A DNA stretch of 64,000 nucleotides from a bacterium (GCA_029780855.1 JAKOXV010000003.1:84953-148952); one strand, 5' to 3'. Numbered from the stretch's first letter, positions 7,317 to 37,421 are shown. Notes: a model not told the origin generated them from the sequence alone. Numbers and translations: made by a program.

Positions 7317-8086
7317 ATAACATGTAGAATGGACTCAAGCGCCAGTGCGGTATCTTGCCAACGAGATACCTCTAAGCTATCAATTCCCATTGCTTTGACC
7401 GGGTAATCATTGCCTCCCTCTACTAGGCGGTCACCAAAGAACAGGATATCCTCTTTGCTTATTTCGAGCATACTAATCAATTTTTCCATTCCATATGCCT
7501 TATCAATTCCTGGTTTTGTGATGTCAATCGAAGTAGATCCACCGCTACGCACTTCGAATTCAGGAATTAACTCAGCAACGTAATCCCGAAGTTTCTTCTT
7601 TTTACTTCCATCTGGGTCCCATTTTTCTTTTTTCTCTACCCCTTCTAAGCCCAATTCATCAACTATATCCTGACCTAACGCAGAGAAAGTTATCTGGCTA
7701 CCCCTATCTTCTATTGTTTCTCCGTACACTTTCGCTTCTTTGTAGCCCAGCTTTACTACACCCGTTTCTAGAGCATCAATTATCTTCTTTTTTTCTGATT
7801 CGGTGAAGTCTTCGGCATACACTTGCTTCCACTTTTTACTAAGTAAATCAAAAATGTAATACTGCGTGCCGCACGTTGGCATAATATGCAGTTTTTCGAG
7901 TTTAGAAGGCTCAACATGAAGATTGGCTAATAGTTGTTTTTCAAATTGCCCAAACTTTCCACCAGAGATTACGCAGACCTGAAAACTGTCTAGTAGTTTG
8001 TCGAGAATTTCAGCCATCCGGTCTTCCAAGGGAGACTTGCTAGCAGCAAGCGTTCCATCCAAATCAAAAGCAATAACCTTCTTCAC
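7313..8086 (-). CDS. HAD-IIB hydrolase, phosphomannomutase-like
   Basis: The N-terminus FDLDGTLA is HAD motif I. It also has ISGG and a C-terminal GDRLVEGGNDY. It sits directly downstream of a ManC-like gene. Confidence 0.55.
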   Translation of the reverse strand: MKKVIAFDLDGTLAASKSPLEDRMAEILDKLLDSFQVCVISGGKFGQFEKQLLANLHVEPSKLEKLHIMPTCGTQYYIFDLLSKKWKQVYAEDFTESEKKKIIDALETGVVKLGYKEAKVYGETIEDRGSQITFSALGQDIVDELGLEGVEKKEKWDPDGSKKKKLRDYVAELIPEFEVRSGGSTSIDITKPGIDKAYGMEKLISMLEISKEDILFFGDRLVEGGNDYPVKAMGIDSLEVSRWQDTALALESILHVI

Positions 8087-8096
8087 AACAACCCTC

Positions 8097-18432: not shown

Positions 18433-19503
18433 TTAAGCAGCTCCGTTACCAGTTTTTTTTCTAGAAATAAGCGGCAGAACAAATATTTTCAGGAAGGCGC
18501 TCCAAATCCCTGCCCCATAAAAAGCAACAAACACCGGCGCTAGGATGAATAGGCTTAGAGCGTCCTTAAACTCTACACCACTTAATATACTGATTAATAA
18601 ACCTAAAACCCAAAAGATGCAACCAGCTAATACTGATGGAAAGATTAAGCTAGGGTAGATTGTCCAAAAAACTGGGATAGAAACTGTAGCTATCAGAAAT
18701 AAGACAATAAACCAAAAGAATTTATTACCATCACGTCTTAAAAAGCCATCAACAAAAACTTTGCCCCTATGATGGACATGCTTGGTGAACTGTCTAAGGG
18801 AGGTCCGAGCGTGATATAAACACCAATAGTCTGGACTTATATTTATGCTATTCGATTCAGCGATATGTCTGATTAGTAGTGTATCGTCATTGGATGTTTT
18901 AAGATCTTTAGTGTTGTCGACAAACCATTCGTTAGCTTCTTTCAGGATGGTTCTTGTTGCAATAAAGCACGTTGTTCCTTTGGGATAGTCATCGAAGCCT
19001 TGAATACCATATGATATATCTCTTGGATTTTTAAAATAATTGCGCCACGCGAGGAAAGCTACCGCCTCCCAGAACCTCGCGTAAATATTTCCTACTTTCT
19101 CAACCCTGACATGACTACACCATACTTGGCGGCTAGGGCCCTTTTGTTGTTGTTTTAGTACGTACTTTAATGCTTCCTTCCCGATAAATACTCTCGTATC
19201 TACAAATAGTAGTAGTTCGTATTTTGCATTTTCTGTACCTGTTTTGCGTGCAACAAATCGCCCGCTGTTTTTTTGAGTTACAAAATTAATAGGCAGGTCC
19301 GTGTCAGTTTTTAACTGCTCAATAACCTCGATAGTATTGTCTGTAGAACCATCATTTACAATAAGTACTTCATAGGCCTTAATTCCAGCCTCCTCAACAG
19401 CCTTCACCACTTTCGCAATTGTCTTTGGTAACCAGACGGCTCCATTGTAAGTTGGTATCACTACCGAAATGGACTTAGGCTGTTTTACTTGTTCTATTTT
19501 CAT
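18433..19503 (-). CDS. glycosyltransferase family 2 with a C-terminal membrane domain
   Basis: SVVIPTYNG ... VNDGSTDNT GT-A signature, followed by 3-4 C-terminal TM helices. Confidence 0.8.
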   Translation of the reverse strand: MKIEQVKQPKSISVVIPTYNGAVWLPKTIAKVVKAVEEAGIKAYEVLIVNDGSTDNTIEVIEQLKTDTDLPINFVTQKNSGRFVARKTGTENAKYELLLFVDTRVFIGKEALKYVLKQQQKGPSRQVWCSHVRVEKVGNIYARFWEAVAFLAWRNYFKNPRDISYGIQGFDDYPKGTTCFIATRTILKEANEWFVDNTKDLKTSNDDTLLIRHIAESNSINISPDYWCLYHARTSLRQFTKHVHHRGKVFVDGFLRRDGNKFFWFIVLFLIATVSIPVFWTIYPSLIFPSVLAGCIFWVLGLLISILSGVEFKDALSLFILAPVFVAFYGAGIWSAFLKIFVLPLISRKKTGNGAA

Positions 19504-19596: not shown

Positions 19597-20862
19597 ATGA
19601 AAAAAGTAGAAAATTTTTACACACGGTCTTTCCTATTTGTTTTTTTGTCTTTGTTTGGAGCAGGCATTAATTACCTTATTTATCCATTCCTCTCTAGATC
19701 CTTTACCCTTAGTCAATTCGGAGACTACGTCACAATTATCGGAATATCGAACCAGGCAATGGGAATTTTGCTTGCATTTTCCGTTTTGTCTATTGCGCTT
19801 GTAAAACAGTATGGAGAAGAAGAAGCCAATGAAAAAACAAAGATAATCCAAAAAGTCCTTTTCTGGACTATCATGGTGCTCGCTGTTCTGGTGGTTGTAT
19901 TTTCTTCGTTTTTACAGAACCTATTAAATATTGAGCATGCAGCATCTTTCATTATTTTGGCCTTAATAATACTACTTGCTGTCCCGGCAAACGTTTGGAC
20001 GGGCTACTTACAGGGACACAAAGAACAGGTTAGAGTTGGTATTTTCACATTAACCAGTGCAACAATAAAGTTCATTGCCATTGCCGTAATGTCCCTTTCT
20101 TTTGGGGTAGTTGGCGGCCTATGGGGTTTTTGGCTGAGCTCTCTTATCGGCTTGTTTGTCCTATATTACCTACCAGGTAAAAAAATACCTAAGCTTGATT
20201 CATTATTTACACGACTAACAAAAACCGAAAGAAGTTATTTAAAGACTAACTTTATCTACATAGCACAGGCTATATTTGTCGTATCAAGTATAGTTTTTCT
20301 ACAGAATTACGATATTATTCGAGTTAAGGCAGTTTTTAATCCCTCTATAGCAGGGATATATGGCGGTATAAGTGTATTAAGTAATGCGTTGTATTTTATT
20401 GCATTTTTGTTAATTTGGATTCTCCTCCCCGAATTCAGTATACATAACCCTAAAAATAACCGTAGAGTACTTCGTACTGCATACCTTTTGATCATCATAC
20501 TAACGCTAGCAGTTGTTATAGGGGGACTTCTACTCGGCAATCGGCTTCTGCCTCTAGTTTTTGGCCATGATTTCGTAAACCAAAATAACACGCTTGTTGT
20601 CGCACTTTTATATCAAATCAGTCTGGTATCGGTTGCTCTATACTCTTTCTACTTACTTATTCTTCGTAGAATTCAAAGCGTAATACTTACAGGATCCGTA
20701 CTGTTCTCTTGCCTTGTTATTCCCATATTTTTCTCAACTACACCCTTCCGTATGATCTCTTCACTTCTTTTTTCTGTAGTTGCGGGTTCACTCCTTTTCA
20801 TTATGTTGTCCGGAAAGGAAATACTTTCAAAGAATCGCTCGAATACTAAGAGTGCTCATTAA
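19597..20862 (+). CDS. Wzx-type oligosaccharide/polysaccharide flippase (MOP superfamily)
   Basis: 421 aa with ~12 TM helices and an N-terminus typical of polysaccharide biosynthesis/flippase proteins. It sits inside a glycan locus. Confidence 0.7.
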   Translation: MKKVENFYTRSFLFVFLSLFGAGINYLIYPFLSRSFTLSQFGDYVTIIGISNQAMGILLAFSVLSIALVKQYGEEEANEKTKIIQKVLFWTIMVLAVLVVVFSSFLQNLLNIEHAASFIILALIILLAVPANVWTGYLQGHKEQVRVGIFTLTSATIKFIAIAVMSLSFGVVGGLWGFWLSSLIGLFVLYYLPGKKIPKLDSLFTRLTKTERSYLKTNFIYIAQAIFVVSSIVFLQNYDIIRVKAVFNPSIAGIYGGISVLSNALYFIAFLLIWILLPEFSIHNPKNNRRVLRTAYLLIIILTLAVVIGGLLLGNRLLPLVFGHDFVNQNNTLVVALLYQISLVSVALYSFYLLILRRIQSVILTGSVLFSCLVIPIFFSTTPFRMISSLLFSVVAGSLLFIMLSGKEILSKNRSNTKSAH

Positions 20863-22024
20863 TTACTTGCAACAACCCCCTCCCATGCTGCTCCCATGAA
20901 TAGTTGTTCTTAACTTTTTTCCAAGCATTAATCCCCAGAGATCGAGACAGGTTCTTGTCTTTGTTTAGTCTATTTAGATGACTGCATATAGTTTTTGTAT
21001 CTTTTTCTTTTGTATAATAACCATCCTCGCCATCTGCAAATAAACTACAGACTCCTTGCCCACGAGGTATTATAAAAGTCGTCCCCCTGCCCGCCGCTTC
21101 CATTGCTGGCATACCGAAACCCCTATCGTCATTTGTTTGTAGAAGAATTTGGGCTTCTGCATAGTATTTCGTTAGCTCATCTTCGCTTACTTCTCCAATT
21201 ATTTCAATCCGCTTCGTGAGTTTATTTTCCTTAAGAAGCTGTGTAAATTCCTTTCTATATTCAGGATCAACCCATTTTCCGACCATTTTTATTCTAATCC
21301 CCGGAACCTCTTTTACTATATCGAGTAAATACTCCGGATGCTTCCCACGTTTCCAAGCAGTGACGATTAGCACATAGTCTTTCTTCTTTAAAAGTTTTTT
21401 CAGAGGATGAACGGAAGGATATACGGTTGCAATCTTTTTCTTTGGATCGATTTGTCGGATAAACTCATTATGAGCATCACCACCTACCAAAACTTTATCC
21501 ATATTCCTTATAACGAAACTGTCCAAAACATATGCAATTTTTTTAAGCACCCACATCACGGGTGACAGAAAGTTTTTACTATAAACACGCTCAAGAATGT
21601 ACGATACTGGATCCCAAATAAATGCAGAAAAGGGAATTTTCCTTATTTTTTTCAAAGAAATCGCACTAAAGCAAGTGTACGTACCATGAACAATAAAATA
21701 ATCATATTCACTTTTCTTTACAACAAACGGCAACAGGAAGGGATATGTTATATGAAATGTTGAAAAAAAATTAAAAACAGGAAATGGTAGCGAAAAGCGC
21801 AATAATCTAGGTAGGCGGTCATCTAAATACACGATAGGTACGCCTTTTAATAAGTCCGGAAAGGCGTTTGGAACAACCGCTTTTCGTCTAAGAACTACGA
21901 GCACGGCGTCTTGGCCCATCGCTCTCAAAGCTTTAACTTCTTCTATGGCAATCTTCTCAACTCCGCCAACGTTTAAACGGTCAATTAGTACCCCTATCTT
22001 CGATTGTTTGTTTTTGTGTTTCAT
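20846..22024 (-). CDS. glycosyltransferase, GT-B fold (GT4-like)
   Basis: N-terminus GGVEKIAIEE and C-terminus DRGFGMPAMEAAGRGTTFI (EX7E-type region). Confidence 0.75.
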   Translation of the reverse strand: MKHKNKQSKIGVLIDRLNVGGVEKIAIEEVKALRAMGQDAVLVVLRRKAVVPNAFPDLLKGVPIVYLDDRLPRLLRFSLPFPVFNFFSTFHITYPFLLPFVVKKSEYDYFIVHGTYTCFSAISLKKIRKIPFSAFIWDPVSYILERVYSKNFLSPVMWVLKKIAYVLDSFVIRNMDKVLVGGDAHNEFIRQIDPKKKIATVYPSVHPLKKLLKKKDYVLIVTAWKRGKHPEYLLDIVKEVPGIRIKMVGKWVDPEYRKEFTQLLKENKLTKRIEIIGEVSEDELTKYYAEAQILLQTNDDRGFGMPAMEAAGRGTTFIIPRGQGVCSLFADGEDGYYTKEKDTKTICSHLNRLNKDKNLSRSLGINAWKKVKNNYSWEQHGRGLLQVINEHS

Positions 22025-23208
22025 TACTTTGTAAATATGGTGATGATTTGCTTTTTTTCTGCCTCTGTTAGTTCGGGATTATTGCCAAAATATAGGCCCT
22101 GTTCATGGATAATACTAGCATTTGACTGCTTGCCGTAGCCACGACTGTCATATTTTTTAAAGAAGGGTTGTTTTGTCATGTCTCCACCTACAATCGGTCG
22201 TAGTTCTATTTTACCATCACAAGCACTCACTAGTTCATCACGGATCTCTTTTGTTTTGCAAATTACTGGAAAAGCAAAATTTGAAACAACATCAATATGG
22301 TCATAGTAAATTGGGTAAAATCTATCATCTTGATCGTAAATACTTTTAGCAATTTGTTTAAAAGTATCTTGACGTATTTTTACAATTTCATCTAGGTATG
22401 GTATTTGCGTGTTGCCAATAAAGCCATTTATCTCTGTTGGCCTAAGGTTATACCCGAGATCATAGAAAGTATACCTTGAATAAAATGTACTATTTACTTT
22501 GTGTCGATCTCTAATCTTCTGTTGATGTTTCTCTGCTAAGTTTCTATCCCACCCATGAGCCCTTACGAGTCGTAGCATGTTTGCGACATCTTCATCGTCT
22601 GTGCAAATTGCTCCGCCCTCGATTGTTGACATATGATGACCTACATAGAACGAAAAGGTGCTGGCTAGACCAAAATTACCTAGTTTTGTTCCCTCGAAAA
22701 CAGTGCCGAGTGATTCACAATTGTCTTCTACGAGCAAAATTTTTTCTTTATCGCATACCTCTTTTATGGCATCTATGTCATCGCAAAATCCTAGCAAATT
22801 GGTTAGGAAAAGCATTTTTATTTCATGCCTTCTAAGAGTTTTTTTAAGCTGTCTGCTTGAAACGTTTAATGTATCGATCTCCACATCTATCGGTACTACG
22901 TGTAATCCTAGCTCAATCAACGGCATCACATTCGTTGACCATGTAAGGGTAGAGATGCCGACTTTATCGCCTTTTTCAAGCATCCCAAGATTTAATAAAA
23001 CTTGAACAATAGCCAGATTTGCAGAGCTACCACTATTTACAAACACACAGTGTTTTCTACCCTGCCACTCTGCGAAGTTTTCTTCAAATTTCTGGCACTC
23101 GGGACCAAAACTTAACATTTCTGCGCCATTGATGAATGAGACCAATTTGTTTTTGGTCTCTTCCTCGTGATAAAACGTCGATTTGATTAATTTAATCATT
23201 TTTCGCAT
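22024..23208 (-). CDS. ColD-like PLP-dependent GDP-4-keto-6-deoxy-D-mannose 3-dehydratase (DegT/DnrJ/EryC1 family)
   Basis: LVEDNCESLG...FSFYVGHHMSTIEGGAICTDDED...RAHGWDRNL closely parallels my recollection of E. coli ColD (LLEDNCESMG...SFYSHHIATMEGGCIVTDDEE...RAHGWTRNL). His replaces the usual Schiff-base Lys. Confidence 0.65.
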   Translation of the reverse strand: MRKMIKLIKSTFYHEEETKNKLVSFINGAEMLSFGPECQKFEENFAEWQGRKHCVFVNSGSSANLAIVQVLLNLGMLEKGDKVGISTLTWSTNVMPLIELGLHVVPIDVEIDTLNVSSRQLKKTLRRHEIKMLFLTNLLGFCDDIDAIKEVCDKEKILLVEDNCESLGTVFEGTKLGNFGLASTFSFYVGHHMSTIEGGAICTDDEDVANMLRLVRAHGWDRNLAEKHQQKIRDRHKVNSTFYSRYTFYDLGYNLRPTEINGFIGNTQIPYLDEIVKIRQDTFKQIAKSIYDQDDRFYPIYYDHIDVVSNFAFPVICKTKEIRDELVSACDGKIELRPIVGGDMTKQPFFKKYDSRGYGKQSNASIIHEQGLYFGNNPELTEAEKKQIITIFTK

Positions 23209-23310
23209 TATATAGGACGTCTCAGCAAATTCATACCATAGTTGTAAAAATGAAAATACATTCTCATGAAAAACATCAGGTTTACGCTATAATGAGAGAA
23301 GATACTCCAT

Positions 23311-24246
23311 ATGAAGCAAGAACTTATCAGCATAGTTATACCAGTCTACAACGAGGAATCAAATATAGCCTGGTTCTATAGTGAACTAAAAACTCAACTC
23401 ATAAAAAAATCCAGCCATAATATTGAAATAATCTATGTTGATGACGGAAGTACCGACAGATCTCTAGATATCATCAAAGACCTTGCTAAACATTCTGATA
23501 CCGTTCGTTATGTTGTACTCTCCAGAAATTTCGGCAAAGAAGCTGCAACGTCTGCCGGTTTAGCTTATGCTTCCGGCGATGCCGTAGTTATTATGGACGC
23601 AGATGGCCAACACCCTATCGAGTTAGTCGGAGAGTTTATTAAGCTATGGCATGAAGGATTTGAGGTGATTGTTGGAGTGCGTTCTGGTAATATTGGCGAA
23701 GGATTCGTCAAGCGCTATGGATCGGTTCTTTTCTATAGGCTCCTGAGAATTATTGGAGGGAAATCTGTAACTCCAGGCACTACTGACTTTAGACTAATTG
23801 ACCGAAAGGTTGTCGATCAGTTCATCAAACTTACGGAACGGAATCGTGTCACTAGAGATCTTATTGACTGGCTCGGGTACAGGAGAGCAGAGATTCCATT
23901 TGAGGCAAATGCTCGGCATGCCGGTAACGCAACTTATTCAACAAGAAAGTTGTTTAGTCTCGCAATAAACGGGATCGTTTCACATTCAACGCGTCCGCTA
24001 AAAATAATCGCGCTCATAGGTTCGATCATCTCCGTGCTTTCAGGGTTTTTGGCAACTCTGTTTTTAATTCAAAGATACTTCCTAGGAGATCCACTCAACA
24101 TCACGGGGAGCGCTTTGTTGGCGCTTTTCGTAACTTTTTTGGTAGGCATAGTTCTTGTTTGTCAGGGTTTGTTGGCACTCTATCTTGAAAGCGTATACTA
24201 CGAGGCGCAGAATCGGCCTTTGTACGTAGTCAGGGAAAGTAAGTAA
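23311..24246 (+). CDS. polyprenol-phosphate glycosyltransferase (GT2, GtrB/ArnC/DPM1-like)
   Basis: SIVIPVYNEE, VDDGSTDRS and DADGQHP motifs plus two C-terminal TM helices, the canonical architecture for this family. Confidence 0.82.
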   Translation: MKQELISIVIPVYNEESNIAWFYSELKTQLIKKSSHNIEIIYVDDGSTDRSLDIIKDLAKHSDTVRYVVLSRNFGKEAATSAGLAYASGDAVVIMDADGQHPIELVGEFIKLWHEGFEVIVGVRSGNIGEGFVKRYGSVLFYRLLRIIGGKSVTPGTTDFRLIDRKVVDQFIKLTERNRVTRDLIDWLGYRRAEIPFEANARHAGNATYSTRKLFSLAINGIVSHSTRPLKIIALIGSIISVLSGFLATLFLIQRYFLGDPLNITGSALLALFVTFLVGIVLVCQGLLALYLESVYYEAQNRPLYVVRESK

Positions 24247-25353
24247 GTGCATGTTCTTTGGTTTTCGTGGAAGGATATTAAGCACCCGCTATCAGGCGGT
24301 GCAGAGACAGTATCACACCAACTTATGACACGCCTTGTGCAGGATGGGCATGAGGTAACACTCATAACTTCTCTCTACCCTGGTGCTAAGCAATTCGAAA
24401 CACTTGACGGCATACAAATATACCGAACCGGTGGCAGAACGTCGGTTTATATTAAAGCTTGGAGGTTATTTCGCAATCAATTAAAAGATTGGCCGGATTT
24501 AGTCGTTGACGAAATGAATACAGTACCATTCGCGAGCGCCTTCTATACAAAAAAACGCTCCATCCTACTAACTTACCAACTAGCCCGAGAGGTATGGTTC
24601 TATCAAATGTTTTTCCCGCTATCTTTATTGGGCTATCTTTTGGAGCCCATTTACCTGTATATCCTCTCTAAAACCTACAAAACTATCATTACTGAATCGG
24701 AGAGTACGCGCCAAGATCTACAAAGGTATGGATTCTCGAATGATAATATTCATGTAGTCCGTGTAGGGATCAAGACTAAACCGATCCCAAAATTAAAGCC
24801 AAAAAAATTGACGAATACAATTCTAGTTTTGGGCTCAATACGGCCAATGAAGCAAACACTTGATGCCGTCAAAGCATTTGAGTACGCTAGAGATTTAAAC
24901 CCTAAACTTCGGTTGGTTATAGCCGGGGATGACAACGGAAGATATGCTAGTAAAGTTAAGGACTATGCAACTCTTTCCAGACACGGGTCGGCTATATCAA
25001 TATTAGGAAGGGTATCTGGTAAAAAACGAGAAAGCCTCATGCGTGAATCATCCATGATTCTCGTCACTTCAGTCAAGGAAGGATGGGGCTTGATAGTAAC
25101 CGAAGCTAACAGCCAAGGAACAGTTGCTATTGCTTACGACAGTGATGGACTAAGGGACAGCGTGATTAACGGAAAGACTGGTGTACTTGTGCAACCGGGC
25201 GACACTAAAGCTATGGGAAACGAGATCAATCAACTATTTAAAGATGCTAAAACGGCTGAGAATTTTCGCATAAATGCGTTTGAATACTCTAAAAGATTCA
25301 CATTTGAAAAATCATACGATGACTTCAAGCAAGCATTGGGTATTACGAAGTAA
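24247..25353 (+). CDS. glycosyltransferase, GT-B fold (GT4-like)
   Basis: GTG start abutting the upstream stop. It has GGAETV at the N-terminus and EGWGLIVTEANSQGTVAIA at the C-terminus. Confidence 0.75.
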   Translation: MHVLWFSWKDIKHPLSGGAETVSHQLMTRLVQDGHEVTLITSLYPGAKQFETLDGIQIYRTGGRTSVYIKAWRLFRNQLKDWPDLVVDEMNTVPFASAFYTKKRSILLTYQLAREVWFYQMFFPLSLLGYLLEPIYLYILSKTYKTIITESESTRQDLQRYGFSNDNIHVVRVGIKTKPIPKLKPKKLTNTILVLGSIRPMKQTLDAVKAFEYARDLNPKLRLVIAGDDNGRYASKVKDYATLSRHGSAISILGRVSGKKRESLMRESSMILVTSVKEGWGLIVTEANSQGTVAIAYDSDGLRDSVINGKTGVLVQPGDTKAMGNEINQLFKDAKTAENFRINAFEYSKRFTFEKSYDDFKQALGITK

Positions 25354-25422
25354 AACCGTGGTGTTTTTAACTTAAAAGGGGTGGTTACTTTAAGGTAAGC
25401 TATCGTTTATAATGGATACCTA

Positions 25423-26589
25423 ATGGGAAAGAAAAAAACAGTCAAAGTTTTTGTTGACGGCGAAGTTTTAGTTATCAAGCACTTTAGCGGCATAGGGCAC
25501 TACACCGCCGAACTATTAAAAGCGGTTGACCGTTTACTTTTTGAAGATGAATATTCTCATTTCCGTTTTGAGATTGGCGTCCCAAGAAGTGACGCGCACA
25601 GAATACATCGTTTTTCGTTTGATAACTTTTCTTTCCGAAAAATGCCTTTTTCACCGCACGTTGCAAACGGGCTGAAGCAAAGAAAGCGTTTACCTCCAAT
25701 CGACCTTCTTTATGGTAAAAGAGTTTATTTGTTCCCAAACTATAGCTCATGGCCTACATACTTTTCTCCCTCCATACCGGTCATATATGACTTATCTTTT
25801 ATTCATCATTCAGAGTTTGTGGAACCAAAAAACCAAGAGTTTTTAGTTGAGCAAGTTGGACTGTCTGTTAAAAGAAGCAAAAAAATCATAACTATTTCTC
25901 ATAATAGTAAAAATGAAATCATCAAAGAGTTTACTCTCAAAGACAGTGATGTAGAAATCGCTTTCCCCGCTGTTGATATGCACAATTTCTACCGAAGCTC
26001 CGATCATACCATTGCGCATACTAAGGCAAAGTATGGAGTGTTTGGTGACTATGTCCTTTTTGTGGGCAATATTGAGCCAAGAAAGAATCTTATTTCTCTG
26101 CTAGAAGCATATGATCAGTTACCAAAAGATGTCCAAAATAAGTACGGCCTACTTCTCGTAGGTGCAAAGGGATGGCTTGATGATGAAATCCATAGAAGAA
26201 TAATTAGCATGAGAATGCGTGGATTGCGTGTTATGCAACCAACGGATTATGTTGAAGATGATGACTTACCGGCATTATATAGTGGCGCATCGGTTTTTGC
26301 TTATGTAAGCCGATATGAGGGCTTCGGGATCCCACCAATAGAAGCAATGGCTTGCGGGACTCCTGTTTTGAGTAGCGACAACTCCTCTTTGCCGGAAGCT
26401 GTTGGCGATGCGGCTTCACTTGTAGATGCGACCGATATTAAAAGCATGTCAAAACAACTTGCAAAACTACTAACCAACAACAAGCTGCGTCAGGAGTTGG
26501 TCAAGAATGGGTACGAACAAATCATGAAATTTGACTGGGAAGAAAGCGCCAAAGTTCTTCTGAAGACACTCGAGGAGGCGGCGGCGTGA
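25423..26589 (+). CDS. glycosyltransferase, GT-B fold (GT4-like)
   Basis: VGNIEPRKN and YEGFGIPPIEAMACGTPVLSS motifs. Confidence 0.8.
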   Translation: MGKKKTVKVFVDGEVLVIKHFSGIGHYTAELLKAVDRLLFEDEYSHFRFEIGVPRSDAHRIHRFSFDNFSFRKMPFSPHVANGLKQRKRLPPIDLLYGKRVYLFPNYSSWPTYFSPSIPVIYDLSFIHHSEFVEPKNQEFLVEQVGLSVKRSKKIITISHNSKNEIIKEFTLKDSDVEIAFPAVDMHNFYRSSDHTIAHTKAKYGVFGDYVLFVGNIEPRKNLISLLEAYDQLPKDVQNKYGLLLVGAKGWLDDEIHRRIISMRMRGLRVMQPTDYVEDDDLPALYSGASVFAYVSRYEGFGIPPIEAMACGTPVLSSDNSSLPEAVGDAASLVDATDIKSMSKQLAKLLTNNKLRQELVKNGYEQIMKFDWEESAKVLLKTLEEAAA

Positions 26590-27824
26590 AGATTGCATTT
26601 GATTTACGTCCTCTCCAAATCGGACATCAAAACCGAGGGATTGGAGCCTATATACTGAACATTTTGGAGAGGATGCCAAAGAATGACGGCCTTACATATA
26701 TTTTTCTTCGCTATGATTCATCCAATCCTATCGACAAGTATAACTTAGGTGGAGAACTAAATTATATTGATGTTGTCATCAAAAAACGCAGTTTTAGTAA
26801 GAACCCCATCAAACTGTTGCTATATGTATATAGCAATCTTGTTCCCGCATTCAATAAACTAAAGCGTCACAAGCCAGATGTATTCGTGCAATGTGATTAT
26901 TTACTGGGTGCTCCAAAAAATTTACGCACCAAAATTATTACTATTTCATATGATCTGATTCCTTATGTGCTTCGAGGCTACTATCTGCCCTCTTGGAGGA
27001 AATATGTTGGTTTTAGACACTTAAGAATTCGCTCGAGAGTTCGACTAATACTACATGCTTGGTTTTATGAGCAGAAATATCGTAACGGTATTCGATTACT
27101 GAAAAGATCAAAGAGAGTAATTAGTATATCCAAAAGCACCACTAGCGACTTAGTACGTCTGGGTAGAGTTCCAGAAAACAAAATAAGCACCATATATCCG
27201 GCCGCCTCTTTTAGGAAAAACAAGCAAGATGTGATTATTCGAGACGAAATTAAAGAATTGGTAAAAAATCTGAAAGGACCAACCATCCTTTACGTAGGTG
27301 CGACCGATAGACGGCGCCAGGTAAAGGAGCTTATTTTTGCCTACAATCTTTATAACGCTCGCGAAGGGGCTATTAATCTTTTACTTGGCGGTAAAGAATT
27401 CAGTACTGATAGTAAGTCTTTGGATCCCAAAGTAAAACAAGAAATCCTGAGCAGTTCCTACAGCGATACGATACATATGCTTGGCAAGATCACCGAAGCA
27501 GAAAAGAAATACTTACTAGAGAACTCTTCTGTATTCGTTTACCCGACCCTATATGAAGGTTTTGGACTTCCTGTGTTAGAGGCAATGGAGGCGGGTTGTC
27601 CAGTTATAACGTATCGGAATTCTTCGCTACCAGAGATAGCAGATGGGGCTGTGCTGTTTACGGAGGAGTATGGTGGCTACGAGATCTATATTTCCTTGTG
27701 CAGAATACTACAGGATGATAAGCTCGCTTCACGACTCGTCAAAGAAGGCAAAGCCAAGGCTAAACTTTTCAATTGGGAGAATTCAGCAAATCAGTTCTGG
27801 GAAGAAATTATGAACTGTAAGTAA
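26586..27824 (+). CDS. glycosyltransferase, GT-B fold (GT4-like)
   Basis: GTGA start/stop overlap with the upstream gene. YEGFGLPVLEAMEAGCPVIT motif. Confidence 0.75.
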   Translation: MKIAFDLRPLQIGHQNRGIGAYILNILERMPKNDGLTYIFLRYDSSNPIDKYNLGGELNYIDVVIKKRSFSKNPIKLLLYVYSNLVPAFNKLKRHKPDVFVQCDYLLGAPKNLRTKIITISYDLIPYVLRGYYLPSWRKYVGFRHLRIRSRVRLILHAWFYEQKYRNGIRLLKRSKRVISISKSTTSDLVRLGRVPENKISTIYPAASFRKNKQDVIIRDEIKELVKNLKGPTILYVGATDRRRQVKELIFAYNLYNAREGAINLLLGGKEFSTDSKSLDPKVKQEILSSSYSDTIHMLGKITEAEKKYLLENSSVFVYPTLYEGFGLPVLEAMEAGCPVITYRNSSLPEIADGAVLFTEEYGGYEIYISLCRILQDDKLASRLVKEGKAKAKLFNWENSANQFWEEIMNCK

Positions 27825-27870
27825 GAACAAAAGTGTTCGAATTAACCAGAAAAGCCTATAATTATCATTT

Positions 27871-28845
27871 ATGAGACATTCTTTTAAACAACTTATCCTC
27901 AAAATACCTTTGTTAAGTACCGTCGCAATAATATCCAAACGAGTCATTAAATTACCGTCAGATTATTCTAGTAACCAGATGCGGTTAGATAATATAAATA
28001 ACCAGGTCACAATTATCCAGCAGCTTGTTGATGCTAATAGTGCTCAAGTTGAAAAATTAGTCAGCAAATACGACAGGAGACAAATGGTTTTAGATAACAT
28101 ACAGAAACAACTTTCTCTCCTACAACAAAGCCTAGAATCTGGTGTCACGAAACACCAAAAAAAAATTAATAAAAAAGAACTGTTTGCCGATGATCACTCA
28201 TTAGATGTTTTCTACACAAATTTTGAAGACAAGTTCCGGGGTAGCGAAGACCTCATAGAAGAACGGCTAAAAGAATATCTTCCGTATTTCACACAGAGTT
28301 CCATAGATTTTAAGAAACATCCAGTTCTTGATATTGGAAGTGGACGAGGAGAGCTACTTAAGACACTCAAAGATGCAAAAATAAATGCAATCGGTCTTGA
28401 TATTAATAGCGATATGGTCGAGAGGGCTAATGCTATGGGGCTAAAAACTAAACAGGGCGATGCATCCGAGTTCTTGCAGAATACCGCCTCACAAACTTAC
28501 GGGGCTATTACTGGTTTTCATATAGCCGAACACTTGCCCTTTCCCGTTTTGTACAGAACCCTTGCGGAAATTCACCGAGTTTTAGTTCCAGGAGGATTTG
28601 TTATATTTGAAACACCTAATCCTGAAAATGTTTTTGTTGGTACTCATAACTTCTACATGGACCCTTCACACCTTCATCCCCTACCACCAGCACTCATGGA
28701 GTTCACTCTTGAGACGTGTGGTTATAATTCCATAGAAATCAAACGCATACACCCAGACAAAACCCCTAAGGAGAACTCTTTACCAGCAGACCTTAGCAAT
28801 CGATTTTATGGCCCAAGAGACTATGCAGTTGTTGGCTACAAGTAA
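27871..28845 (+). CDS. class I SAM-dependent methyltransferase with an N-terminal coiled coil (possible glycan chain-terminating methyltransferase)
   Basis: Heptad-rich aa ~35-95. FYTNFEDKFRGSEDLIEERLKEYLPYF is followed by the LDIGSGRGE SAM-binding motif. It is adjacent to wzt/wzm. Confidence 0.75.
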   Translation: MRHSFKQLILKIPLLSTVAIISKRVIKLPSDYSSNQMRLDNINNQVTIIQQLVDANSAQVEKLVSKYDRRQMVLDNIQKQLSLLQQSLESGVTKHQKKINKKELFADDHSLDVFYTNFEDKFRGSEDLIEERLKEYLPYFTQSSIDFKKHPVLDIGSGRGELLKTLKDAKINAIGLDINSDMVERANAMGLKTKQGDASEFLQNTASQTYGAITGFHIAEHLPFPVLYRTLAEIHRVLVPGGFVIFETPNPENVFVGTHNFYMDPSHLHPLPPALMEFTLETCGYNSIEIKRIHPDKTPKENSLPADLSNRFYGPRDYAVVGYK

Positions 28846-28849
28846 TGTA

Positions 28850-30025
28850 TTAGGATACCTCAATAATAAAGCCGGGGTCTATGTCATAAGGAAGACGGCG
28901 TTTCTTCTTTATATCAAGCATCGTAGCATCATCCCACCAATCGGAAACCGTTATTCCGTCTGCATGCTGTAGAGCTATATCAATACTGTATTTTCCGTCA
29001 CTAAATATATTTGGCATAGATATGGTTATTAGTTTTTTCTCTCCTTTTGTAATTTCAGGAATTTGAACTTTTTCTTTTTTTGTATTTGTACCCGTTACCT
29101 CTTTACCGGTACTACTTCTAACGCGCACGCCAATGACCAATCCTGAAAAATCCTTGTTTGCTTGTATCGCGACTTTTAGCTTGATAGACTCGTCGGAAAC
29201 GCTCGATTCAACGCTCGACACAACAACAGCTCCATCGCCCCATCTACTACTCTCTGAATCAGTGGAACCTTTGTTATTTTCAATTACATTGAAAAGTTTT
29301 GTATATGCTTGTGCAACTTTATCTGTGTCCCCAAGCAGAGCGAGTTTGTTATTTTCAATCAACATTGCTCTATCGCAATATTCGCGCACTGCGCTCATGT
29401 CATGAGTTACAAATATCACGGTTATTTTCTCTTTTTTAAGTTTCTTAAAATACTCGAAGCACTTGCGCTGAAAATCTGCATCTCCCACTGCCAAGACTTC
29501 ATCTATTAGCAGTACGTCTGCTTTGGCTCTGACAGCCATAGAAAAAGCCAAGCGCACCTGCATACCAGATGAGTAGTTCTTTAGCTTTTGATCCATAAAC
29601 TCTTCAAGCTCAGCAAAGTTAACAATGTCACTATACTGGCCATCGATTTCCTTCTCGCTAAAACCAAGCATTGCGCCGTTAAGGTAGACATTTTGCCTGC
29701 CCGTTAGCTCGGGATTAAAACCTACACCTAGCTCTATGAAGGGCACTAATTTCCCTTTTACACTTACGCTCCCTTGGGTTGGCTGGTAAATGCCTGCTAA
29801 CATTTTTAGCAAAGTACTCTTACCACTACCGTTACGCCCAACAATTCCGAAGAATTCACCTTTACTTACCTCGAATGACACGTCCTTAACTGCGTGCTGT
29901 GTTTCGATCCTTTTGTTTCGGTGGTGCAACATTCTTGTAAAACCAGCTTTAACCGTTCCGGTTCGCTCTTGAGGAAGACGAAAATTCTTTGAAACATGTT
30001 TTACGCTAACAACAATATCAGGCAT
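28850..30025 (-). CDS. polysaccharide ABC exporter ATP-binding protein (Wzt/TagH-type) with an extra C-terminal beta-rich domain
   Basis: Walker A GRNGSGKST, signature SSGMQVRL and Walker B LLIDE. A ~140-aa extra C-terminal domain is present. Start set at MPDIVV (30025), giving an ATGA overlap with wzm. Confidence 0.87.
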   Translation of the reverse strand: MPDIVVSVKHVSKNFRLPQERTGTVKAGFTRMLHHRNKRIETQHAVKDVSFEVSKGEFFGIVGRNGSGKSTLLKMLAGIYQPTQGSVSVKGKLVPFIELGVGFNPELTGRQNVYLNGAMLGFSEKEIDGQYSDIVNFAELEEFMDQKLKNYSSGMQVRLAFSMAVRAKADVLLIDEVLAVGDADFQRKCFEYFKKLKKEKITVIFVTHDMSAVREYCDRAMLIENNKLALLGDTDKVAQAYTKLFNVIENNKGSTDSESSRWGDGAVVVSSVESSVSDESIKLKVAIQANKDFSGLVIGVRVRSSTGKEVTGTNTKKEKVQIPEITKGEKKLITISMPNIFSDGKYSIDIALQHADGITVSDWWDDATMLDIKKKRRLPYDIDPGFIIEVS

Positions 30026-30849
30026 CAGACTTCCTCCGCGAAGTATGGAGAACACTTTTTAAAATACACAACTGAGAACAGTAATACCGCAATCACGATT
30101 CCTAGAGGAATAAAAACTGAATAGTTTGTCCCAAACACATCCCCGATTGTAGTTGTTTTGTCAGTAACTAGCCCGTATCGTGCACCTTGAATTATTTGCG
30201 CAACCGGATTTATCATGATTAGCTTGGCGAGCACTGTGCTTTTATCGCTGATGAACGAAAATGCATACAATATCGGTGTGGCGTAGAAACCTACCTGTAC
30301 TATAACTTCCCAAATATAGTTTATGTCTCTAAAACGAACATACATAGCACTTAGGATGAACGCTATGGATAGAGAAAAGATGAATAACTCTGAAACGATT
30401 AACGGAAAAAGGAATGCATTGTGATTAGGCTCTGCATGCCCTAACCACATAAAGAACACAACAACTAGCATGTTAAGGGAAAAATTAATAAGCGCAGATA
30501 CGGACACTGCTAGTACGATGACATAGCGCGGAAAACTAATTTTTCGCATTAGATCTCCCTTTCCTACGATAGAAGCTACACTTCCAGACGTTACTTCAAT
30601 AAAAAAGTTCCACAACACGATGCCGAGAAGCAGGTAAACTCCAAAGTGAGGAACGTCCCCACCTGTTTTAAGTATGACCACGAAAACAACATAGAGAACC
30701 AGGAATAGAAACAGCGGACGGAGTAGAGACCAGAAATAACCTAAAACTGAATTTTGGTATCTAATTCGAAAATCTGTTTTAACTAGCTGCTTGAGCAGGA
30801 TAATCGAATAACGATACCTCCCCCTAAGTCTTTCTGCGCTTCTTTTCAT
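30025..30849 (-). CDS. polysaccharide ABC exporter permease (ABC-2 type, Wzm/TagG-like)
   Basis: 274 aa with 6 TM helices and an ABC-2 N-terminus (LVKTDFRIRYQNSVLGYFWSLLRP). Confidence 0.87.
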   Translation of the reverse strand: MKRSAERLRGRYRYSIILLKQLVKTDFRIRYQNSVLGYFWSLLRPLFLFLVLYVVFVVILKTGGDVPHFGVYLLLGIVLWNFFIEVTSGSVASIVGKGDLMRKISFPRYVIVLAVSVSALINFSLNMLVVVFFMWLGHAEPNHNAFLFPLIVSELFIFSLSIAFILSAMYVRFRDINYIWEVIVQVGFYATPILYAFSFISDKSTVLAKLIMINPVAQIIQGARYGLVTDKTTTIGDVFGTNYSVFIPLGIVIAVLLFSVVYFKKCSPYFAEEV

Positions 30850-30924
30850 TGGTTACTTTATTATAAGGAATTCTGTGTAGCGTAAGCAAATGGTAGAGAT
30901 GAGAAAATCTGATATAGTTTAGTT

Positions 30925-31884
30925 ATGAGCAATATTTTAGTTACGGGTGTTAATGGTTTTGTTGGACGTCATCTGGCAAAAGAGTTGCACGATCAAGGAT
31001 ACGGCGTTTTGGGGCTTGGTCAAGAAAAAAACACACCAAAGGAGCTTAAAAATTACTTGAGTGGATACTTTGCTTGTGACCTCAATGATTACGCTCAAGT
31101 TAGTGATCTACCGTTCGATTCGGTATCCGCTATAGTTAATCTTGCTGGGCTTGCAAATGTCGCAGAATCGTTTAAGTTACCTGGTCAGTACGAAAAGGTA
31201 AATGTTAATATTATTTCCAATCTAGCATCTGCCGTTGCAAAAAAGAAGCATCCAGTACGACTTGTTGCTGTAAGCACCGGTGCCGTATATGACCCTAATC
31301 AAAATATGCCCCTAACAGAAATGTCGAGTCTTGTACGGCTTGACAACACCAGCCCTTACGTTAAGAGTAAGATAAAGATGGAAGAGGTAGCTGAGGAGTC
31401 ACGAAGAAATGGGGTGGACTGCGTAATCGTTCGGCCGTTTAATCACATTGGTCCAGGACAAAATCCCGGCTTTCTAGTACCAGACCTAGCAAAACAAGTT
31501 CAAGAAACAGTTTCATCAGGCACTAATCAGATTCAGGTAGGTGACCTTAGCACTAGAAGAGATTATACGGACGTAAGGGACGTAGTAAGGGCATATAGAC
31601 TTTTAGCAACGGTTGATGGAGGCAGTCTAAACCACTCAATATATAACGTTTGTAGTGGAACTCCGTGTTCTGGAGCAAAAATACTTGAACTAGTCTCTAA
31701 AGAACTCGGAATCCCTAAACTGGAAGTAACAGTAGACAAGAGTCGAATCCGACCAAATGATCCTCCTGAGCTTTACGGAAGTTACGAAAAACTAAAAGCT
31801 GATACTGGATGGGAGCCGACTATCCCACTAGACCAAACTATCGCCGATTTTGTTTCCTGGCGCAAATCTAGCCCAGCTGAATAA
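30925..31884 (+). CDS. Rmd-like GDP-4-dehydro-6-deoxy-D-mannose reductase (extended SDR)
   Basis: VTGVNGFVGRHL, RPFNHIGPGQ, VGDLSTRRDYTDVRDV, YNVCSG and TGWEPTI blocks parallel my recollection of Pseudomonas Rmd. It is convergent with gmd. Confidence 0.68.
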   Translation: MSNILVTGVNGFVGRHLAKELHDQGYGVLGLGQEKNTPKELKNYLSGYFACDLNDYAQVSDLPFDSVSAIVNLAGLANVAESFKLPGQYEKVNVNIISNLASAVAKKKHPVRLVAVSTGAVYDPNQNMPLTEMSSLVRLDNTSPYVKSKIKMEEVAEESRRNGVDCVIVRPFNHIGPGQNPGFLVPDLAKQVQETVSSGTNQIQVGDLSTRRDYTDVRDVVRAYRLLATVDGGSLNHSIYNVCSGTPCSGAKILELVSKELGIPKLEVTVDKSRIRPNDPPELYGSYEKLKADTGWEPTIPLDQTIADFVSWRKSSPAE

Positions 31885-32920
31885 TCTGTTCTTCTGCAGC
31901 TAAATCATGGGTTACCATAAGTTTGACGAGACCTTTAAAGTCTACATCTCGTTTCCAGCCGAGTTCTTTTTCTGCTTTTGAAGGATCACCTAACAGCAAA
32001 TCTACCTCGGCAGGACGGAAGAACTCTGGGTTAATGGAAACCAGTGTCTTTCCGGTGCTAGTGTCTACGCCTTTTTCATCGGCTCCATTGCCTTCCCATT
32101 TTAGATCGATATCAATCTCTTTAAATGCTAGCTCACAAAATTCCCGGATAGAGTGGGTTTCTCCTGTAGCCAACACATAATCATCTGGTTTGGATTGCTG
32201 AAGCATGAGCCACATTCCTTTTACGTAATCGCCCGCATAACCCCAGTCGCGTTTTGAATCTAAGTTACCCAGTTCGATCTTTTCTTGTTTTCCGTACTTA
32301 ATACGTGCAACGGACTGGCTAATTTTTCGGGTTACGAACTCTGGACCCCGGCGCTCACCTTCGTGATTAAACAGAATTCCGCTGAGCGCGAACATGCCGT
32401 AGCTTTCGCGGTAATTCCGAGTTATCCAATGTCCATAAAGCTTAGCTACACCATAAGGACTACGTGGGTGGAATGTGGCGGTTTCAGTGTAGCCTTTTTC
32501 CGGCCGGTTATAGTCTAATCCTCCGAACATTTCGCTGGTACTAGCCTGATAAAAGCGCGTTGTTTTCTCTAGACCTGCGAGCCGAATGGCTTCAAGCATA
32601 TTGAGCACTCCCTTACCAGTCACATCGGCCGTAAGTACAGGGTCGCGGAAAGAATAACCAACATGACTGATTGCAGCCAGGTTATATACTTCATCTGGTT
32701 TGATTTCTTGCATTGCTCGCGTTAGTGCGGCAAGATCCAAAAGGTCGGCCATAACAAGATGTACGTATGGCATTTCCGCCTGTACAGCTTTATATCTTGG
32801 GTGGCTGGCTTCCATTTGCCCACGGATAATCCCGTATACTTCGTAGCCTTTTTCATGCAAAAACTTTGCCAAATGGCCGCCGTCTTGACCTGCGATTCCC
32901 GTAATAAGTGCGCGTTTCAC
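31868..32920 (-). CDS. gmd: GDP-mannose 4,6-dehydratase
   Basis: ALITGIAGQDGGHLAKFLHEKGYEVYGI, QASTSEMFG, SPYGVAKLY and NHEGERRG, all canonical Gmd blocks. Confidence 0.93.
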   Translation of the reverse strand: MKRALITGIAGQDGGHLAKFLHEKGYEVYGIIRGQMEASHPRYKAVQAEMPYVHLVMADLLDLAALTRAMQEIKPDEVYNLAAISHVGYSFRDPVLTADVTGKGVLNMLEAIRLAGLEKTTRFYQASTSEMFGGLDYNRPEKGYTETATFHPRSPYGVAKLYGHWITRNYRESYGMFALSGILFNHEGERRGPEFVTRKISQSVARIKYGKQEKIELGNLDSKRDWGYAGDYVKGMWLMLQQSKPDDYVLATGETHSIREFCELAFKEIDIDLKWEGNGADEKGVDTSTGKTLVSINPEFFRPAEVDLLLGDPSKAEKELGWKRDVDFKGLVKLMVTHDLAAEEQIIQLG

Positions 32921-33176: not shown

Positions 33177-34268
33177 ATGAAACGAATTGCCATTGATGCC
33201 CGCGAGTTGCGCACCAGTACCGGACGCTATATTGAGCGGTTACTACACTACTTACAACTGATTGATTCGGATCACGAATATGTAGTGCTTCTAAAACCTA
33301 ATGATTTTGATAGTTGGACCCCAACCAACAAGAAGTTTTCTAAGGTTGCTTGCCCCTACAAAGAGTTTACTTTTGCAGAGCAATTAGGGATGCATAGTCA
33401 GATCCGTTCACTAAAAGTGGATCTCGTCCATTTCCCTATAGTTCAGCAGCCAATCCTGTACCGGGGCGATGTAGTAACGAGCATGTTAGATCTCACTACA
33501 GTTCGTTTTAGGAATCCTGCAAAAAATGTTGCGATATTCTGGATCAAACAACAGGTTTACAAGGTAGTAAACAAGGTGGTGGCAAGAAAGTCCAAGCACA
33601 TCATCACCATTAGCGACTTCGTAAAAAACGATATTGCTCAATATGCCCACATACCCACCGACAAAATCACGACTACTTACTTGGCGGCGGATAAGATTAC
33701 TGATGAGTCGGAGACTGTCGCAGACATGAAAGGAAAGCAGTTTATTATGTACGTTGGGCGACCGCAGCCACACAAAAACCTAGAGCGACTTGTTCAAGCA
33801 TTTAAGAAACTTAATGAGACACATCCGGAACTTCATTTGGTGCTAGCGGGTAAAAAAGATGTGCTGTTTGAAATGCTCGAACAGTACGTAAAAGATAACG
33901 GTGTCAAAAATGTGTACTTCACCGGTTTTGTAAGCGAAGGGCAGCTTAGGTGGCTGTACGAAAACGGCCAGGCGTATGTATTTCCAAGTTTGAGTGAAGG
34001 GTTTGGCTTGCCAGGCCTAGAAGCGATGCAGTACAACCTGCCAGTGGTATCCAGCAATGCTACCTGCCTGCCCGAGGTTTACAAAGATGCTGCGCTGTAT
34101 TTTAACCCCGTAAGTATTGACGATATGGCGATAAAAATTAAGCAGGTCTTAAGCGATAAAAAGCTTGCCAATGATTTAGCAAAAAAGGGAAGCGAACTGG
34201 TCAAAACGTATTCTTGGGAACGCATGGCCCAGCAAACCCTAGACGTATATCGATCTGTAATCGACTAA
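33177..34268 (+). CDS. glycosyltransferase, GT-B fold (GT4-like)
   Basis: VGRPQPHKN and SEGFGLPGLEAMQYNLPVVSS motifs. Confidence 0.8.
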   Translation: MKRIAIDARELRTSTGRYIERLLHYLQLIDSDHEYVVLLKPNDFDSWTPTNKKFSKVACPYKEFTFAEQLGMHSQIRSLKVDLVHFPIVQQPILYRGDVVTSMLDLTTVRFRNPAKNVAIFWIKQQVYKVVNKVVARKSKHIITISDFVKNDIAQYAHIPTDKITTTYLAADKITDESETVADMKGKQFIMYVGRPQPHKNLERLVQAFKKLNETHPELHLVLAGKKDVLFEMLEQYVKDNGVKNVYFTGFVSEGQLRWLYENGQAYVFPSLSEGFGLPGLEAMQYNLPVVSSNATCLPEVYKDAALYFNPVSIDDMAIKIKQVLSDKKLANDLAKKGSELVKTYSWERMAQQTLDVYRSVID

Positions 34269-36985: not shown

Positions 36986-37421
36986 ATGTCCTGAAGTCAT
37001 ATGAAACTCCTAGACTTACTGCATCAATAGAACATTCGTATTCAACTACTCGTCGTCCTTCACTATCCGTATTGTCTGTCATAACAGGATCTTTACATCC
37101 TGTTTCTTCAAGTAAATCCTTTAACATACTGACAATGTTTTTATCTTTTAGTGTAAAGGTTTTACTTTTTAGGAAGCAGGCCGTTTCAGATTCTATTGGA
37201 CATTGGCGACCAGCTATGCCTTTGTTGATAGTCTCTTTTTCTAGCTTCCAGTCAGCGGGGAACGTCATTCGATTAAATACCCGCTCCACGTCACTGTAGT
37301 TGGGGGTGGTTGAGGTAAAAGGATATACAGCAAAGTTAACGTAAAGTAATCCAAAAATAATAATAACTACACCAAATAAGATGCTTAAAACTTTTAACGT
37401 CTTATGGTTACGCAAGTTCAC
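36957..37421 (-). CDS. hypothetical N-terminally anchored protein
   Basis: 154 aa with one TM helix (VLSILFGVVIIIFGLLYVNF) and a Cys-containing ectodomain. No recognisable motif. Confidence 0.5.
   Translation of the reverse strand: MNLRNHKTLKVLSILFGVVIIIFGLLYVNFAVYPFTSTTPNYSDVERVFNRMTFPADWKLEKETINKGIAGRQCPIESETACFLKSKTFTLKDKNIVSMLKDLLEETGCKDPVMTDNTDSEGRRVVEYECSIDAVSLGVSYDFRTYELFVFANS

Follow-up and report, generated by a model that had tools for sequence, protein, structure and literature searches.

The locus and its central genes

The stretch of DNA analyzed here (GCA_029780855.1, JAKOXV010000003.1:84953-148952, called the window below) represents 64 kb out of a bacterial genome of ~1 Mb, and the absence of a gene is reported for this window unless stated otherwise. 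As far as sequence comparison can tell, it holds a conserved cell-surface polysaccharide cluster of Saccharibacteria with predicted Wzm/Wzt-type export, in which a relative of ColD, the 3-dehydratase of the guanosine diphosphate (GDP)-L-colitose pathway, occurs together with a GDP-mannose 4,6-dehydratase (Gmd), a reductase of the Rmd family and a glycosyltransferase (GT) that directly follows the ColD-like gene. All of the gene coordinates given by a first-pass annotation of the window were borne out, and its placement of the host in the Candidate Phyla Radiation (CPR) agrees with the closest homologues of the ColD-like protein, which come from metagenome-assembled genomes (MAGs) of Candidatus Saccharimonadales (83-84% identity), as do the syntenic loci. 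The central genes are the following.

22024-23208, minus strand: predicted ColD-type, pyridoxamine 5'-phosphate (PMP)-dependent nucleoside diphosphate (NDP)-4-keto-6-deoxyhexose 3-dehydratase, 394 aa, with His for the Schiff-base Lys and no Fe-S motif
20846-22024, minus strand: GT4 glycosyltransferase (Pfam Glycos_transf_1 and Glyco_transf_4), candidate transferase for the ColD-derived sugar
30925-31884, plus strand: Rmd-family GDP-4-keto-6-deoxy-D-mannose 4-reductase, best PDB matches 2pk3 and 6x3b
31868-32920, minus strand: Gmd, TIGR01472 at 447.2 bits (cut-off 415)

A dehydratase of the ColD type

The product of the 22024-23208 gene has the DegT/aspartate-aminotransferase fold (PF01041, 207.8 bits over residues 15-391), and its top matches among solved structures are four Escherichia coli O55 ColD/WbdK entries (2gms, E 1.3e-60, 208.6 bits), followed by the Yersinia E1 enzyme (3bcx, 142.9 bits, E 1.2e-40), with true aminotransferase structures, perosamine synthase included, reaching at most 95 bits. 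The first His of FYVGHHMSTIEGG falls in the column of ColD His188, a column anchored by the mutant chains 3b8x and 2r0t (H188N, H188K), and in the motif alignment with 34 CPR homologues 'GHH' is invariant (34/34). The claim that the Schiff-base Lys of this DegT-family enzyme is replaced by His thus stands, no conserved Lys being found. Such a Lys-to-His change is the hallmark of the 3-dehydratases, among which an Fe-S motif separates E1/SpnQ from ColD (review PMC8987622). In the window protein the Cys-rich [2Fe-2S] segment of E1, GRDCYCAPGCDNTCKKR, is replaced by GWDRNLAEKHQQKIRDR, which resembles 'GWTRNLPKKN' of ColD, and the NCBIfam RfbH/E1 equivalog NF011936 gives 212.6 bits, with a cut-off of 423. 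The gene product is predicted to be a ColD-type and not an E1-type PMP-dependent 3-dehydratase, because the score lies below the cut-off and the Fe-S cysteines are absent; on the same two grounds the identity as E1/RfbH, which is both the Joint Genome Institute (JGI) annotation and the best NCBIfam match, was rejected. As for the nucleotide carrier, we infer GDP specificity from the genomic context, the gene being linked to Gmd (8.7 kb off) and to the ManC/PMM pair (13 kb off) inside one conserved cluster.

The protein is ~35-40% identical to the characterized E. coli ColD. In a library of representatives at 50% identity, which contained 701 ColD-like clusters at E <= 1e-30, approximately 120 cluster representatives outscore E. 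coli ColD, and over the best 120 clusters the identity within Patescibacteria is 75-84%. In a neighbor-joining tree of ColD-like proteins with E1 as outgroup, CPR proteins from canonical colitose-type operons (described below) are basal to the clade of the window protein, with E. coli ColD branching next, and all of them keep 'HH'. Because of this branching order, the clade is most simply read as descended from a true ColD of the colitose type.

A scan for ColD-like genes with one genome per species yielded 36 loci with 54-83% identity, nearly all of them from Saccharibacteria, Levybacteria, Roizmanbacteria, Pacebacteria, Wildermuthbacteria and Taylorbacteria. Identity amounts to 74-79% between Saccharibacteria and Levybacteria and to 60-84% across CPR phyla; this unusual conservation suggests horizontal transfer of the gene among CPR and strong selection on it. 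Six of the loci (L021, L022, L025 and L028-L030) are labeled as MAGs of "uncultured Gammaproteobacteria". Their ColD-like proteins are 65-71% identical to that of the window, which is the range of the non-Saccharibacteria CPR phyla, and L028-L030 also share the flanking short-chain dehydrogenases/reductases (SDRs) of those phyla, so that the labels are probably wrong.

Five ColD-like homologues (P0174, P0185, P0189, P0215 and P0123) contain inteins at active-site motifs. In four of them an intein with a LAGLIDADG endonuclease lies between 'GHHMS' and 'TLEGG', directly after the catalytic His pair, and the remaining one has a mini-intein within 'LEDNC|E'; the two sites correspond to residues ~160-165 and ~193-197 of the window protein.

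Gmd and the Rmd-family reductase

The gene at 31868-32920 had been described as a canonical Gmd, in keeping with its TIGR01472 score; its product is 54% identical to E. coli Gmd, has the 'ASTSE' and Y-x3-K ('YGVAK') motifs, and is the sole 4,6-dehydratase in the window. The neighboring reductase gene is convergent with it, the two 3' ends overlapping by 17 nt, and here too the earlier description as Rmd-like is upheld by the PDB, in which the Rmd structures 2pk3 (4e-38) and 6x3b (2e-33) rank best, with 33% identity to 2pk3. The assignment was made from structures and motifs, without a curated Rmd hidden Markov model. 'FNHIGPGQ' is identical to Rmd, 'VSTGAVY' and 'YVKSK' are present and the Thr/Tyr/Lys triad is kept; the catalytic Glu of Gmd and a Cys at the position of Fcl C109 are both lacking. 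The protein is predicted to act primarily in the synthesis of GDP-D-rhamnose (or 6-deoxytalose).

GDP-mannose supply and the lack of a linked ColC/Fcl

Upstream of Gmd in the pathway, GDP-mannose would be provided by the two genes at 7313-9140 that had been proposed as ManC-like and phosphomannomutase (PMM)-like, which model matches support. Together with an adjoining pair for UDP sugars they make up the nucleotide-sugar genes of this part of the cluster, ManC/PMM being the sole linked supply besides Ugd/UXS.

8097-9140, minus strand: ManC, TIGR01479 at 259 bits over the transferase part
7313-8086, minus strand: HAD-IIB/PMM-type phosphomannomutase candidate (TIGR01484; the orthologue in locus L001 has a PF03332 PMM match)
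10110-11432, minus strand: UDP-glucose 6-dehydrogenase (Ugd), TIGR03026 at 476 bits
9146-10201, minus strand: UXS/RmlB-like extended SDR, best matches to the dTDP-glucose dehydratase and UXS models

For extended SDRs, all six-frame open reading frames (ORFs) of at least 80 aa were searched by phmmer with Gmd and the Rmd-like protein as queries, to which Fcl of E. coli K-12 was added later. The window contains three such proteins, i.e. Gmd, the Rmd-like reductase and the UXS-like protein at 9146-10201; the Fcl query revealed no additional SDR in the 64 kb, and neither phmmer of the ORFs nor the Fcl model detected an Fcl/ColC homologue there. On the NCBIfam Fcl model NF047922, with a cut-off of 500, the Rmd-like protein obtains 42 bits and the UXS-like one 56 bits (a partial-length match), in contrast to 428.7 bits for a ColC-like CPR protein from locus L035. 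The UXS-like SDR was considered as a concealed ColC and rejected, since it is UXS/RmlB-like and adjoins Ugd.

The flanks of relatives were searched by phmmer with the window proteins, E. coli Fcl and E. coli Gmd, the absence of an Fcl-like gene being judged within 10 kb. Synteny with the window spans the entire cluster in L005, L009, L010, L011, L013, L015, L016, L017 and L019, and no Fcl-like ORF was found within 10 kb in at least nine syntenic Saccharibacteria loci. The first-pass observation that an Fcl/ColC-like enzyme is missing thus holds for the window and extends to these loci at that distance. A canonical Gmd-ColD-Fcl-type operon is present in two other Saccharibacteria loci, L035 and L038, whose ColD homologues are 54-55% identical to the window protein, and the nearest relatives of their Fcl-type protein in other Saccharimonadales belong to the same three-gene operon. 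Canonical operons of this kind (Gmd-ColD-ColC) are common among Saccharimonadales. In the Saccharimonadales loci that combine a ColD-type gene with one of the Fcl/ColC type (L035, L038 and L122-L125), the two are immediate neighbors. In the ColC-like protein of L035 (11165-12094, plus strand), 'NIYGEGDNF' stands in place of 'NLYGPHDNF' of E. coli Fcl, with Gly in the His column, and the Cys of 'SSC' is kept; this His is the one that we take to be the epimerization acid/base His179.

A widespread core and an accessory cassette

The first-pass annotation had treated Gmd, the ColD-like enzyme and the Rmd-like reductase as one module, a grouping that the comparison of loci does not sustain. The core of Gmd, Rmd-like, Wzm, Wzt and GT4 genes occurs without a ColD-like gene in many loci (e.g. 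L043, L045, L047, L061, L068 and L084), often in the same convergent order, and in L068 the PgfS-like GT2 gene lies directly after the gene for a 12-transmembrane (TM) protein, which is the gene order of the window minus the ColD-GT4 pair. A metagenome scan anchored on the Rmd-like gene, in which its relatives show ~50% identity at best, recovered 80 loci, with no ColD-like gene lying within 10 kb of the anchor in any of them; ~46 of these loci measure 6 kb or more, and a full 10 kb to either side is present in only ~15. In the tree, Rmd-like proteins from ColD-bearing and ColD-less loci interleave, which disposes of a specialized Rmd subclade tied to ColD.

The ColD-like gene and the GT4 gene behind it are joined by a TAATG stop/start overlap and would thus be translationally coupled. 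Orthologues of this GT4 (>400 bits) were found in 11 loci, each time immediately after the ColD-like gene; the 80 loci of the Rmd-anchored scan contain none. Because the core occurs without ColD, the Rmd-like proteins interleave and the coupled GT4 is only found after a ColD-like gene, the locus appears to be composed of two units, a widespread D-rhamnan-type core and a separate accessory cassette of two genes, the ColD-like dehydratase and its GT4. Conservation within the cluster is markedly uneven: relative to the self-score of the window protein, the orthologues in L005-L019 reach 665-783 of 905 bits in the case of the ColD-like protein and 482-675 of 798 bits in that of Gmd, as against no more than 253-356 of 714 bits for the Rmd-like protein.

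Proposed pathway and its alternatives

In the pathway that we propose, ManC and the PMM-type enzyme would supply GDP-mannose, which Gmd would convert to GDP-4-keto-6-deoxy-D-mannose. Most of this product would be reduced by the Rmd-family enzyme to GDP-D-rhamnose or the corresponding C4 epimer, from which the GT4 enzymes would build a backbone, and part of it would be drawn off by the ColD-GT4 cassette. The ColD-type enzyme, using PMP and the catalytic His, would strip the 3-hydroxyl group to give GDP-4-keto-3,6-dideoxy-D-mannose, with PMP regenerated from glutamate. Because no 5-epimerase/4-reductase of the ColC/Fcl type is linked, the keto group is then most likely reduced without epimerization by the resident Rmd-family reductase, yielding a GDP-3,6-dideoxy-D-hexose, which would have the D-arabino (tyvelose) configuration if the stereochemistry of Rmd is retained, and the coupled GT4 would transfer this hexose onto the polymer, where it would form a side branch or a cap. 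Of these elements, the identity of the reductase, the stereochemistry of the product and the acceptor are the ones that we infer. We would give the complete pathway a probability of roughly 0.45; a ColC-free route to a GDP-3,6-dideoxy-D-hexose as such seems plausible, at odds somewhat short of even. Still more tentative is the wider proposal of a mobile ColD-GT4 cassette in Saccharibacteria and other CPR that would employ a housekeeping Rmd as a promiscuous 4-reductase to make a natural GDP-tyvelose-type sugar, a product of none of the pathways described so far, which would be exposed on the epibiont surface as a variable decoration of D-rhamnan.

Two observations make it plausible that an Rmd-type enzyme reduces the ColD product at C4. 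One homologue, P0125, naturally combines in a single chain an Rmd-family SDR and a ColD-like domain with 55% identity to the window protein, and non-epimerizing reductases of Campylobacter jejuni perform a comparable reaction in vitro (see below). The best PDB matches of the P0125 SDR, 4lw8 and 2pk3, are two of the three best of the window reductase, and this SDR carries the motif 'RIFDQEGPGRQ'. ColD-type domains are also fused to other partners, namely to Gmd in P0204 and to an SDR of the Fcl/ColC type in P0194 ('STC', 'GPHDNF'). The suggestion of the first-pass annotation that the Rmd-like enzyme reduces the ColD product is therefore retained as plausible, shorn of the notion that this enzyme is a dedicated partner of ColD.

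Several observations weigh against the proposed pathway, and the alternatives draw on the same evidence. As the core is frequent without a ColD-like gene and the reductases interleave in the tree, the Rmd-like enzyme does not appear to be specialized for the ColD product. It is clearly an independent D-rhamnose enzyme and could serve D-rhamnose only, with a ColC/Fcl-type gene elsewhere in the genome leading to ordinary GDP-L-colitose. An unlinked ColC of this kind is possible because the window covers 64 kb of ~1 Mb and Saccharimonadales commonly carry genes of the Fcl/ColC type, which makes colitose the main rival, albeit one that we regard as unlikely. It would have to be reconciled with the finding that every Saccharimonadales Fcl/ColC-type gene examined adjoins its own ColD and Gmd (L035, L038 and L122-L125), with the lack of such a gene within 10 kb in at least nine syntenic loci of the window type, and with the fact that no genome of the one-per-species scan, the sensitivity of which is limited, yielded two ColD-type loci.

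The substrate of the ColD-like clade is a further point. The identity of ~35-40% to the characterized ColD compares with 62-67% among the characterized ColDs themselves (PMC10440746), and the substrate specificity is to that extent extrapolated. Moreover, different SDRs lie beside the genes of the clade in other CPR phyla, namely a GalE/RmlB-like one ('ASTSHVYG', no dehydratase Glu) and a distant member of the Fcl family (150-225 bits), with no Gmd within 10 kb, which speaks against a firm assignment of GDP specificity to the clade. The clade could thus act on another NDP-4-keto-6-deoxyhexose or with an unrecognized partner from the cluster, Gmd and Rmd being unrelated to it, and both the non-Gmd SDRs beside it in Levybacteria and Roizmanbacteria and several conserved cluster proteins that lack a family assignment would accommodate such a role. 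We consider this improbable, since the Saccharibacteria cluster has no 4,6-dehydratase other than Gmd and no linked nucleotide-sugar supply apart from ManC/PMM and Ugd/UXS, the basal relatives reside in Gmd-ColD-Fcl operons, a Gmd::ColD fusion exists (P0204), and the proteins without a family are polytopic membrane proteins and not oxidoreductases. An ordinary sugar 4-aminotransferase, e.g. a perosamine synthase, would fit the DegT fold and the 95 bits to perosamine synthetase structures, and yet it is hardly credible, given that the Schiff-base position holds His instead of Lys in the window protein and in all 34 CPR homologues, that the score to ColD is more than twice those to aminotransferases, and that ColD and E1 with their native His have no transaminase activity (review PMC8987622); the invariant His led to the rejection of this candidate. 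Taken with these alternatives, the proposed pathway from GDP-mannose through the ColD-type dehydratase and the resident reductase is the reading that we prefer.

The remainder of the glycan locus

The surroundings of the central genes include an ABC (ATP-binding cassette)-dependent polysaccharide export set, consisting of a PF01061 permease and a PF00005/PF14524 ATPase inside the GT cluster. In total the envelope-glycan locus holds two GT2s and five GT4s, and it also encodes a protein with an immunoglobulin domain.

30025-30849, minus strand: Wzm-type ABC-2 permease (PF01061), six predicted TM segments
28850-30055, minus strand: Wzt-type ABC ATPase with a C-terminal glycan-binding domain (PF00005 and PF14524 Wzt_C)
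27871-28845, plus strand: S-adenosylmethionine-dependent methyltransferase (Methyltransf_25/23/11, residues 136-251)
24247-25353, 25423-26589 and 26586-27824, plus strand: three GT4 glycosyltransferases (Pfam GT4/GT1)
23311-24246, plus strand: GT2 polyprenyl-phosphate glycosyltransferase, PgfS/ArnC-like (NF047588 251 bits, NF007986 160 bits, both below cut-off)
19597-20862, plus strand: 12-TM membrane protein (predicted TM segments; no Pfam/NCBIfam match)
18433-19503, minus strand: GT2, a cluster member syntenic in Saccharibacteria loci
16188-18404, minus strand, and 14147-16201, plus strand: two paralogous large proteins, each with 8-9 N-terminal TM segments and no Pfam/NCBIfam match
1590-2393: BacA (Pfam/NCBIfam)
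2869-3351: GtrA (Pfam/NCBIfam)
3323-4675: Wzy_C ligase-like protein (Pfam/NCBIfam)
4753-6198: initiating polyprenyl glycosylphosphotransferase (Pfam/NCBIfam)
6195-7316: GT4 (Pfam/NCBIfam)

The GT4 genes at 25423-26589 and 26586-27824 are kept beside Wzt in loci with and without ColD. The combination of a methyltransferase with a Wzt_C domain recalls the logic of ABC-dependent O-antigens, in which a chain terminator is recognized as a cap, and it is possible that the methyltransferase at 27871-28845 is a chain-terminating cap enzyme. Its long N-terminal region gives a weak match of the coiled-coil type. The gene of the PgfS/ArnC-like GT2, a protein with two C-terminal TM segments, is divergent from the ColD-like gene. 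The two large proteins score ~165 bits to one another and, like the 12-TM protein, are conserved in the Saccharibacteria cluster; these three may be enzymes of the GT-C or polymerase type that decorate the glycan outside the cytoplasm in concert with the PgfS/ArnC-like GT2 and GtrA. Just beyond the glycan cluster, a gene at 34265-37000 (minus strand) encodes a protein of 911 aa in which residues 144-275 match a cutinase domain (PF01083) and TM segments are predicted at either end.

Comparison with known systems

The locus appears to be among the few conserved and at the same time strongly diversifying surface-glycan clusters of Saccharibacteria. These bacteria live as obligate epibionts, and the chemistry of their surface probably controls attachment to the host as well as recognition by phages and the immune system. 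Should the proposed pathway be correct, the formation of a D-series 3,6-dideoxyhexose from GDP-mannose would provide a new nucleotide sugar, and the pathway would have been expanded through a single dehydratase that borrows an existing reductase. Our literature search found nothing relevant on colitose in Patescibacteria or Saccharibacteria, nor any naturally occurring GDP pathway that ends in a D-series 3,6-dideoxyhexose (GDP-tyvelose).

The core of the locus is reminiscent of the common polysaccharide antigen of Pseudomonas aeruginosa, a D-rhamnan for which Gmd, Rmd, WbpW, Wzm/Wzt, the GT4 enzymes WbpX/Y/Z and methyltransferases are employed. The two share Gmd and Rmd, several GT4s, Wzm/Wzt and a methyltransferase in one locus; they differ in that the host of the window belongs to the CPR and has no outer membrane, and in that the window adds GT2, GtrA and GT-C-like genes and the ColD-GT4 cassette.

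With the GDP-L-colitose pathway of E. coli O55/O111 and Yersinia pseudotuberculosis (ManB/ManC, Gmd, ColD and ColC), the window has in common ManC, Gmd and a PMP/His 3-dehydratase without an Fe-S cluster. It differs in the lack of a linked ColC/Fcl, in the coupling of the ColD-like gene to a GT4 instead of Gmd and ColC, and in its predicted product, which would keep the D configuration. The CDP-3,6-dideoxyhexose pathway (E1/RfbH and E3, leading to tyvelose, paratose and abequose) offers the same fold, the catalytic His and possibly the tyvelose configuration; in contrast to it, the window dehydratase has no [2Fe-2S] motif and scores far below the RfbH cut-off, CDP-glucose genes are missing from the window, and the predicted carrier is GDP.

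The characterized natural routes to 3,6-dideoxyhexoses and -heptoses found in the literature start either from CDP-glucose (E1/E3) or from GDP-mannose or GDP-heptose, the latter two with a 5-epimerizing step (ColC or the C. jejuni C5-epimerase). A close parallel to the scheme proposed here is found in the GDP-3,6-dideoxyheptoses of C. jejuni, in which, according to Raushel and co-workers, separate SDR C4-reductases act after the ColD-type C3-dehydratases (PMC10440746). As in the window scheme, the C3-dehydratase acts on a GDP-4-keto-6-deoxy sugar, and non-epimerizing C4-reductases from other serotypes converted GDP-3,6-dideoxy-4-keto-heptose to the D-arabino and D-lyxo 3,6-dideoxyheptoses in vitro. 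The natural C. jejuni route differs in starting from GDP-heptose and including a C5-epimerase, and the D-series was obtained only by mixing enzymes of different serotypes (PMC10440746), whereas in the window the D-series product would arise from GDP-mannose with the reductase already resident in the locus.

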